From Candidatus Bathyarchaeota archaeon (GTDB taxonomy: Archaea; Thermoproteota; Bathyarchaeia; Bathyarchaeales; Bathycorpusculaceae), in assembly GCA_030589055.1 (NCBI GenBank), contig JAUUWK010000001.1:1-37712 (forward strand): a stretch of DNA of 37,712 nucleotides, in the 5' to 3' direction. Both the position numbers and the translations under genes were made by a program. Shown piece by piece: positions 13,429-13,977 of the stretch. How positions within the stretch are numbered: the stretch's first letter is position 1; each line of letters begins with the position of its first letter. The notes beneath the pieces are model-generated. The model saw nothing but the letters and a program-made list of their open reading frames with translations. It was not told the DNA's origin and ran no database searches.

Positions 13429-13977
13429 TTGAGTGAAGAGAAAAGCTTAGAGGAACTCAAGGCTGATGTTCTGATTAAGCTTAGGAAATACAGGCTGCTT
13501 AAGAAGGAAAAAGTCAAGGATATTATGCACTATTTTATCAAGGTTCCCAAAGAAAAACAGAAAGCCCTGATTTGGTGCATCCCCAAAGAAGGCACAGTTG
13601 GCATAGCGGTAGTTAAAAACTTGGAAAAGGTCATGAAAGAGAAGAACATGGAAAGAGGGATACTTATTACAAGTGGAAAATACACCCATGCGGCACGCGT
13701 GAATGCCAAGAAAATGAACATTGAGCTTCTACCTAAAATCTTTCCATCCTTCGACATATTCAAACATAAGCTTGTTCCAAAACACGAAATGTTAACACAG
13801 AAAGAAAGAGACCAAGTACTTACTCAATACAAGATTCAGCCATACCAACTACCTGAAATCAGAGCTTCAGACCCAGCCGTAAAGGCTATAGGCGCAAACC
13901 CCGGAGATATATTGCGGATAATCAGAAAGAGCCCCACAGCAGGCACACACATAGCTTACCGTTACGTCGTGGAGTAA
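13429..13977 (+). CDS. rpoH: RNA polymerase subunit Rpo5/RpoH in a long, two-domain Rpb5-like form (TTG start uncertain)
   Basis: The C-terminus '[68 protein letters not shown]' is the RpoH/Rpb5 C-domain. About 100 preceding residues align by eye with the eukaryotic Rpb5 N-domain. Confidence 0.85.
   Translation: [182 protein letters not shown]

Follow-up and report, generated by a model that had tools for sequence, protein, structure and literature searches.

We analysed a 37,712-nucleotide (nt) stretch of DNA from a Candidatus Bathyarchaeota archaeon (assembly GCA_030589055.1, contig JAUUWK010000001.1, positions 1 to 37,712 of the forward strand; hereafter the window), which carries a long form of the gene for RNA polymerase subunit Rpo5 (RpoH). 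The gene, rpo5, occupies 13429..13977 on the plus strand and comprises 182 codons and a stop, starting with TTG, an extent drawn from the list of open reading frames (ORFs), full-length homologs and an AlphaFold2 model. Its product consists of an N-domain (residues 1–106; 13429..13746), which carries an inactivated Mrr-type PD-(D/E)XK fold and is the probable counterpart of the eukaryotic Rpb5 jaw, and a C-domain (residues 107–182; 13747..13974), which is the RpoH/Rpb5 assembly domain. Two sites within the N-domain, likewise on the plus strand, recur below: W49-C50-I51 (13573..13581), on strand β3 where Mrr nucleases have their catalytic (E/Q)-x-K, and Y85-T86-H87-A88-A89 (13681..13695), which profile and phmmer alignments place opposite the TPSA motif of eukaryotic Rpb5. 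The original prediction had described an ORF of 182 amino acids (aa) at these positions, and we recovered both the frame and the peptide stretches quoted from it.

The C-domain was identified by two independent models. Residues 108–180 matched Pfam RNA_pol_Rpb5_C (PF01191) with an E value of 1.7e-30 and 105 bits (cut-off 23.5), and residues 107–182 matched the NCBIfam RpoH equivalog NF007129 with 108.5 bits (cut-off 83); both scores lie above the curated cut-offs, in agreement with the earlier assignment of the last ~75 residues to an RpoH/Rpb5 C-domain. The domain is 53–59% identical to the Rpo5 chains of archaeal polymerase structures, with a root-mean-square deviation (rmsd) of 1.6–2.6 Å, and for the Pyrococcus and Thermococcus Rpo5 structures the values are 56–59% identity and 1.6 Å.

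The N-domain, in turn, belongs to a nuclease fold. Residues 20–101 matched NA-iREase1 (PF22722; E 2.7e-10, 40.6 bits, cut-off 27) and Mrr_cat (PF04471; E 1.8e-9, 38.2 bits, cut-off 21), and both models matched 35 of 35 family members. AlphaFold2 modelled the full-length protein with a mean predicted local distance difference test (pLDDT) score of 89 and a predicted template modelling score of 0.62; the N-domain alone was modelled with a pLDDT of 93 and the topology α-β-β-β-α-β-α-β, which contains the α-β-β-β-α-β core of PD-(D/E)XK nucleases. By its C-domain the window protein is thus placed in the RpoH/Rpb5 family and by its N-domain fold in the Mrr_cat superfamily, but it is predicted not to be a nuclease.

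We then compared the protein with eukaryotic Rpb5. Residues 44–181 were collinear with residues 64–205 of Arabidopsis Rpb5 in a phmmer alignment, with one 4-residue gap across the domain junction, and the alignments to human and yeast Rpb5 likewise spanned residue ~44 to the C-terminus. Searched against the PDB as a single sequence, the N-domain placed two Rpb5 entries on top, not significantly (E 0.08 and 0.4). Profile A1, built from 35 Bathyarchaeia N-domains, retrieved seven eukaryotic Rpb5 entries (E 5.6e-5 to 7e-3), all other entries having E values of 0.8 or more; profile A3, built from 23 diverse archaeal N-domains, retrieved 11 Rpb5 entries (E 1.6e-10 to 2e-5), the next match being noise at E 0.08. 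The resemblance of residues ~44–95 to the eukaryotic N-domain, originally proposed by eye, is significant with these profiles. The A3 alignment spans Rpb5 residues 12–117, including the N-terminal helix α1 with its R-G-Y motif, and places a ~20-residue insertion, absent from the archaeal forms, between helix α1 and the sheet of eukaryotic Rpb5. Against a library of 1.84 billion proteins, the Bathyarchaeia profile recovered metazoan Rpb5 at E 6.8e-4. Y-T-H-A-A aligned with G-M-T-P-S-A-K of metazoan Rpb5, and Y85, T86 and A88 are nearly invariant; the (F/Y)T..A pattern of this site is also present in Mrr nucleases.

Structural comparison gave a similar picture. Foldseek with the full-length model ranked eukaryotic Rpb5 first, over 150–160 columns and both domains, with archaeal Rpo5 chains aligned over 75 columns; together with the AlphaFold2 models, this upholds the two-domain, Rpb5-like architecture that had been put forward. 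For the isolated N-domain, MspJI (E 1.6e-4) and Rpb5 (5xog_E, E 2.9e-4) were level, and the superposition on Rpb5 that had been proposed as a check gave an rmsd of 2.3 Å over 80 columns for this domain.

We consider it probable that the gene encodes a long, two-domain Rpo5, expressed singly, whose dead Mrr-type N-domain is homologous to the Rpb5 jaw and would lie along the downstream DNA. Several points weigh against this. Of the two Pfam models suggested for testing the protein, RNA_pol_Rpb5_C was found, as above, and RNA_pol_Rpb5_N (PF03871) was not: it gave no match at E ≤ 10 for the window protein and matched 0 of 35 relatives. The full-length model has an rmsd of ~10 Å to Rpb5, its predicted interdomain orientation being uncertain and unlike that of Rpb5 in RNA polymerase II (Pol II); the proposed reading does not depend on this orientation. 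In hidden Markov model scoring on the archaeal profile, Mrr nucleases reach 39–59 bits and eukaryotic Rpb5_N 37–41. That the 182-aa protein is incorporated into the polymerase is something we infer from its sequence. The search for a second, short rpoH covered the window and 10-kb flanks only, and the accession numbering in one report (PMC13257274) suggests that rpo5 lies beside rpoB and rpoA in some Bathyarchaeota, a point that would also favour a specialised paralog.

The miss by RNA_pol_Rpb5_N is not counted as a refutation, because PF03871 spans only residues 4–94 of Rpb5, including the eukaryote-specific insert, and because eukaryotic Rpb5 itself weakly matches NA-iREase1 and Mrr_cat in Pfam. 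For the same reasons, "Mrr-like fold" and "Rpb5 N-domain" are not true alternatives, and by these matches the domain is both a generic Mrr-like fold and a homolog of the Rpb5 N-domain. Since Mrr nucleases score at least as well as eukaryotic Rpb5_N on the archaeal profile, the archaeal N-domain is best placed as an intermediate, a recognisable member of the Mrr family that is homologous to the jaw.

The same data can be read as a convergent fusion, in which RpoH acquired an Mrr-type domain on separate occasions, in archaea (possibly repeatedly) and in the stem lineage of eukaryotes; the archaeal N-domain would then be a fold relative, not an ancestor or ortholog, of the eukaryotic jaw, and may still act as a jaw. 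We regard this as possible but doubtful. The N-domain does fall inside Mrr_cat/NA-iREase1 and outside Rpb5_N, yet the archaeal profile spans the whole jaw, including the R-G-Y of helix α1, and one Asgard-type N-domain weakly matches Rpb5_N (E 0.009). Mrr nucleases equal or outscore eukaryotic Rpb5_N on the archaeal profiles, and MspJI is level with Rpb5 when the N-domain is compared alone; the order of the domains is nevertheless the same as in eukaryotic Rpb5, the alignment through the junction is nearly free of gaps, and (E/Q)xK is gone in both archaeal and eukaryotic forms. Independent fusion would also be consistent with a patchy distribution, in which model archaea have the short RpoH only, whereas the occurrence of the long form in Heimdallarchaeia, including Hodarchaeales, speaks against it. 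N-domain-like modules are further found with other C-terminal parts and in tandem copies, which marks the module as mobile.

To define the distribution of the long form, the 1.84-billion-protein library was searched exhaustively, with 134 representatives left after clustering at 50%; of these, about 30 are proteins of 176–239 aa in which the N-domain is joined to Rpb5_C. Named long-form members come from Bathyarchaeia (several deep subgroups), Hodarchaeales, Thorarchaeota, Heimdallarchaeota and Kariarchaeaceae, the last of these added by a word-indexed search with the diverse N-domain profile, which returned nine proteins. Matches from Hadesarchaea, Aenigmatarchaeota and Methanosarcinales of the type of anaerobic methanotrophic archaea were to the C-domain only. 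The original prediction had spoken of a eukaryotic signature in an archaeal polymerase subunit: the two-domain form stands, though not for this genome alone, being found across Bathyarchaeia and in Asgard archaea.

The searches also returned variants of this architecture. Tandem long Rpo5 paralogs of 187 and 184 aa are encoded at 6001–6564 and 6639–7193 (plus strand) of loci L106/L107, on contigs of 86.8 kb (L106) and 591 kb (L107), and both combine the dead-nuclease domain with Rpb5_C. Two giant Rpo5 proteins, P0241 (436 aa) and P0272 (481 aa), carry two or three tandem inactive Mrr-like domains before Rpb5_C; in P0272, which NCBI names RpoH/Rpb5 C-terminal domain-containing protein, the domain adjoining Rpb5_C weakly matches Pfam Rpb5_N (E 0.009). 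In four proteins of ~190–200 aa (P0203, P0222, P0255 and P0264), an N-domain like that of the long Rpo5 precedes a cysteine-rich C-terminal part, and Rpb5_C is missing. These four proteins suggest that the dead-nuclease module has been reused in other contexts. One Asgard long-Rpo5 locus has a weak OST48-like neighbour.

We next considered whether the long gene replaces the short RpoH or stands beside it. Its product gives the single Rpb5_C match in the window. A metagenome scan with the RpoA fragment of the window yielded 80 loci at 74–89% identity, 37 of which hold a complete rpoB with 0.5–3.7 kb of upstream sequence. The position upstream of rpoB, where the original prediction had advised looking for a short rpoH, held no Rpb5_C-like ORF in 37 of 37 related loci (best E above 1). 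As the canonical rpoH slot is empty in these loci, the long gene is the strongest candidate for the sole Rpo5 gene of the lineage, and it most likely encodes the housekeeping Rpo5, in place of the short RpoH. Two options had been left side by side, replacement of the short RpoH and a second paralog; the one Rpb5_C match in the window and the lack of any upstream of the 37 rpoB genes favour the first. At locus L029, the usual archaeal rpoH slot upstream of rpoB (2546–3741) is ~1.2 kb without a convincing ORF, Rpb5_C remnant or Rfam match, with transfer RNAs (tRNAs) further upstream at 1445–1520 and 2041–2143. Rfam scans of the window and of this gap returned tRNAs or nothing.

Under the alternative, the gene would encode a specialised paralog, a second Rpo5-like protein that serves only some polymerases or has another use, with a housekeeping short RpoH outside the window. 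We hold this to be improbable. The detachment of rpo5 from the rpoB–rpoA cluster would fit such a protein, although the long gene stands by itself in all the other lineages inspected, and at the loci of five other lineages it never adjoins rpoB. The tandem paralogs of L106/L107 show duplication of the long form in another lineage, whereas 14 Bathyarchaeia genomes had one locus each in a pattern-based scan, which could miss a divergent copy. The paralog also fits poorly with the 37 empty slots and the single match in the window, and with a C-domain that scores far above the NF007129 cut-off and is the more conserved half of the protein.

The match to Mrr_cat above its curated cut-off, together with the structural resemblance to the nuclease domains of MspJI and AspBHI, might point to an Mrr-type endonuclease that is still active and is anchored to the polymerase or to DNA, with a role, for example, in defence or in transcript or DNA processing. 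The catalytic residues speak against this. In an hmmalign alignment with Mrr nucleases, which carry D...D and (V/I)QCK, the window protein has W49-C50-I51 in place of the latter motif; an Asgard form has I-R-I there, and metazoan Rpb5 has F-F-P. The (E/Q)xK site holds non-catalytic residues in every long Rpo5 form examined; W49 and C50 are kept in at least 90% of 66 relatives, and the aspartate of the preceding strand of the Mrr active site is unconserved in long Rpo5. The top Pfam match, NA-iREase1, is moreover a family defined as inactive. From these residues the N-domain is taken to be a dead nuclease fold, and we rejected an active nuclease as very improbable on the loss of the catalytic motif.

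We also asked whether the N-terminal half is real coding sequence. A homolog search found more than 120 clusters of 173–199 aa that carry both halves, and the N-terminal half alone as query recovered the same two-half proteins; clusters of 176–199 aa with both halves number more than 160, at 53–98% identity. The alignment of 66 relatives has a mean column identity of 71%, with invariant residues in either half as well as at the junction (F105, P106 and F108). Over codons 1–106, comparison with 11 relatives revealed that substitutions pile up at third positions, with 17, 5 and 34 substitutions at codon positions 1, 2 and 3 in the comparison with L001. In more distant relatives, amino-acid differences amount to 20–30% in the C-domain and 45–50% in the N-domain. 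These patterns indicate that the N-terminal half evolves faster than the C-terminal half, yet is clearly under purifying selection.

Upstream of the gene, a promoter-like block AAGGTTTAAGGGTTAA resembling the B recognition element and TATA box lies at 13369..13384 on the plus strand, 45–60 nt 5′ of the start codon. In an alignment of the upstream region with 10 relatives, the columns of AAGGTTTAAGGGTTAA are invariant or nearly so and the flanks are otherwise unconserved, and by its position and conservation the block would act as the promoter of rpo5. A TTTCG block at 13398..13402 (plus strand; conserved columns T100–G104 of alignment A4) may lie near the archaeal transcription start expected from the TATA-like block, at about 13400. 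The Shine-Dalgarno-like motif GAGGT, read from the sequence at 13417..13421 (plus strand), lies 7 nt before the TTG, and its region is partly kept in the upstream sequences of relatives. Many homologs have ATG where the window has TTG 13429, their protein beginning MSEEESLEE. Because of these ATG-starting homologs, the GAGGT motif and the invariant upstream block, we take TTG 13429 to be the true start of rpo5 and assign the gene its own promoter-like element.

An artefact, with the N-terminal half produced by wrongly extending the ORF at its 5′ end or by chimeric assembly and the protein truly starting near residue 96–121, is scarcely credible: NCBI does annotate RpoH proteins of 72–91 aa in the same 90% clusters as members of 182–189 aa, but codons 1–106 combine conserved amino acids with third-position bias, internal methionines are unconserved, the promoter-like block and Shine-Dalgarno motif lie 5′ of TTG 13429, homologs have ATG at that position, the two-domain architecture repeats in hundreds of independent assemblies and the N-domain fold is predicted with confidence. 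We rejected it on the conservation of the N-terminal half, the upstream signals and the third-position bias. The short records, named "RNA polymerase subunit H" by NCBI, fall in the clusters of P0190 and P0210 (P0309, which is OGD57471.1, P0310, P0311 and P0320). Annotation pipelines appear to lose the N-domain in some records through their choice of start codon, and automatic annotation that shortens some genes to 72–91 aa thereby conceals it.

The neighbourhood of rpo5 is made up of tldD, pmbA and a haloacid dehalogenase (HAD) hydrolase gene, and the protein has Rpb5_C as its sole domain beside the N-domain, with no NACHT NTPase module. The gene was described at the outset as standing alone and divergent from tldD, which is borne out: tldD (11853..13298) and pmbA (10466..11839) lie on the minus strand, and a 130-nt spacer separates tldD from rpo5. 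Downstream of rpo5 are a conserved 80-aa ORF and the HAD hydrolase gene. The 80-aa ORF (14011–14253, minus strand) is convergent with rpo5 and has no Pfam match; its homologs are 64–85% identical and adjoin rpo5, or lie at most ~3.5 kb from it, in 10 of 14 related genomes. Further away, overlapping thiolase and ChsH2-like OB-fold/zinc-ribbon genes at 16394–17969 (minus strand) form an ordinary-looking pair unrelated to rpo5.

The polymerase cluster enters the window at its far end, where the C-terminal part of rpoA (Rpo1; Pfam RNA_pol_Rpb1_5) occupies 36770..37712 on the minus strand and runs past the window end. The rpo5 gene lies 22.8 kb from this rpoA end, on the opposite strand, and does not directly precede rpoB, as had been proposed. 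An rpoA'' gene had been placed ~23 kb away on the other strand; the distance and strand hold, and a separate rpoA'' does not, the sequence being the end of an unsplit rpoA. The window ORF has no in-frame stop before the window end, and its relatives are one unsplit ORF of 1276–1310 aa, with no A'/A'' division. An unsplit rpoA is found at 7088–10927 of L029 and likewise in ~40 other loci among L028–L105. An exact look-up of the L30e-like and NusA-like proteins of the window, made to reach past the window end, returned no match.

Compared with known systems, the window protein resembles eukaryotic Rpb5 (RPABC1/ABC27) most in its plan: both have a dead restriction-endonuclease fold followed by Rpb5_C, and T-x-x-A of the window protein stands at the TPSA position. 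The archaeal protein is shorter, at 182 aa against 205–215 aa, and its 106-residue N-domain is without the ~20-residue insertion of the ~140-residue eukaryotic N-domain; unlike eukaryotic Rpb5, this domain is still recognisably Mrr-like and fails Pfam Rpb5_N. The window Rpo5 would serve one archaeal polymerase, whereas eukaryotic Rpb5 is common to RNA polymerases I, II and III. Homologs of Rpb5 are also known from giant viruses, namely D205R of African swine fever virus and Rpo22 of vaccinia.

Classical archaeal RpoH/Rpo5 (Pyrococcus 8cro_H, Thermococcus 4qiw_H and Sulfolobus 2waq_H) is alike in its C-domain, but is a single-domain protein of 75–90 aa, whereas the 182-aa window protein has an extra folded N-domain of 106 residues; the classical gene lies directly before rpoB, whereas the window rpo5 stands alone with its own promoter-like element. 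Mrr_cat and NA-iREase1 have the core fold and the V-G and (F/Y)-T-x-x-A motifs in common with the window N-domain, but Mrr_cat nucleases keep D...(E/Q)xK, which the window domain is without, and the modules fused to Mrr_cat and NA-iREase1 are DNA-recognition or NACHT modules in place of a polymerase subunit. According to two reports (PMC13257274; PMC3479171), Rpo13 of Sulfolobales lies beside the N-terminus of Rpo5 and contacts double-stranded DNA. It occupies the region where a jaw domain would sit and offers a functional analogy only: Rpo13 is a small, helical, unrelated protein that forms a subunit of its own, unlike the fused N-domain of Rpo5.

At the downstream end of the cleft, the largest subunit is the docking site of Rpo5/Rpb5 C-domains. 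The proposed role of the long Rpo5 builds on this: residues 107–182 would be an ordinary assembly domain at this end of the DNA cleft, docked to the C-terminal part of the largest subunit, and the N-domain, in the same place in the polypeptide as the eukaryotic jaw, would extend the lower jaw along the downstream DNA duplex without catalysis. The eukaryotic Rpb5 N-domain forms the lower jaw, its TPSA motif touches downstream DNA and the jaw binds several factors (PMC6690254). By analogy, the helix from Y85-T86-H87-A88 to the conserved K94-K95 would be the counterpart of the TPSA motif, and the N-domain may contact DNA, steadying the downstream duplex in open-complex formation and elongation, and could present a docking surface for factors. 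The gene itself would be transcribed singly from the conserved promoter-like element, outside the rpoB–rpoA operon.

In a survey of PD-(D/E)XK proteins, the Rpb5 N-domain is assigned the restriction-endonuclease fold and listed for Eukaryota only (PMC3424549), and reviews call the jaw domain eukaryote-specific. In the literature searched, a long archaeal Rpo5 is nowhere described; what is said there of archaeal RpoH is that the N-domain is missing. As a tentative scenario, to which we give slightly less than even chances, a dead Mrr domain was fused to RpoH within Archaea, was kept in Bathyarchaeia and Asgard archaea and passed to eukaryotes, where it gained the insertion and became the jaw of polymerases I, II and III; eukaryotic inheritance of the archaeal two-domain form is plausible but unproven. 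The presence of the homologous domain also in Heimdallarchaeia makes it of interest for the origin of the eukaryotic polymerase.

Rpb8 and Rpc34 are earlier examples of "eukaryotic" polymerase features traced into Archaea. If the proposed reading is true, Rpb5 would join this short list, the two-domain Rpb5 would be no eukaryotic invention, and model archaea, with their short RpoH, would either retain the older state or have lost the N-domain secondarily. The jaw domain would then have a concrete origin in a dead Mrr-type nuclease, and archaea with a long Rpo5 would provide a natural system for studying jaw function without eukaryotic factors, in which the core function of the domain would be testable in a simpler polymerase.

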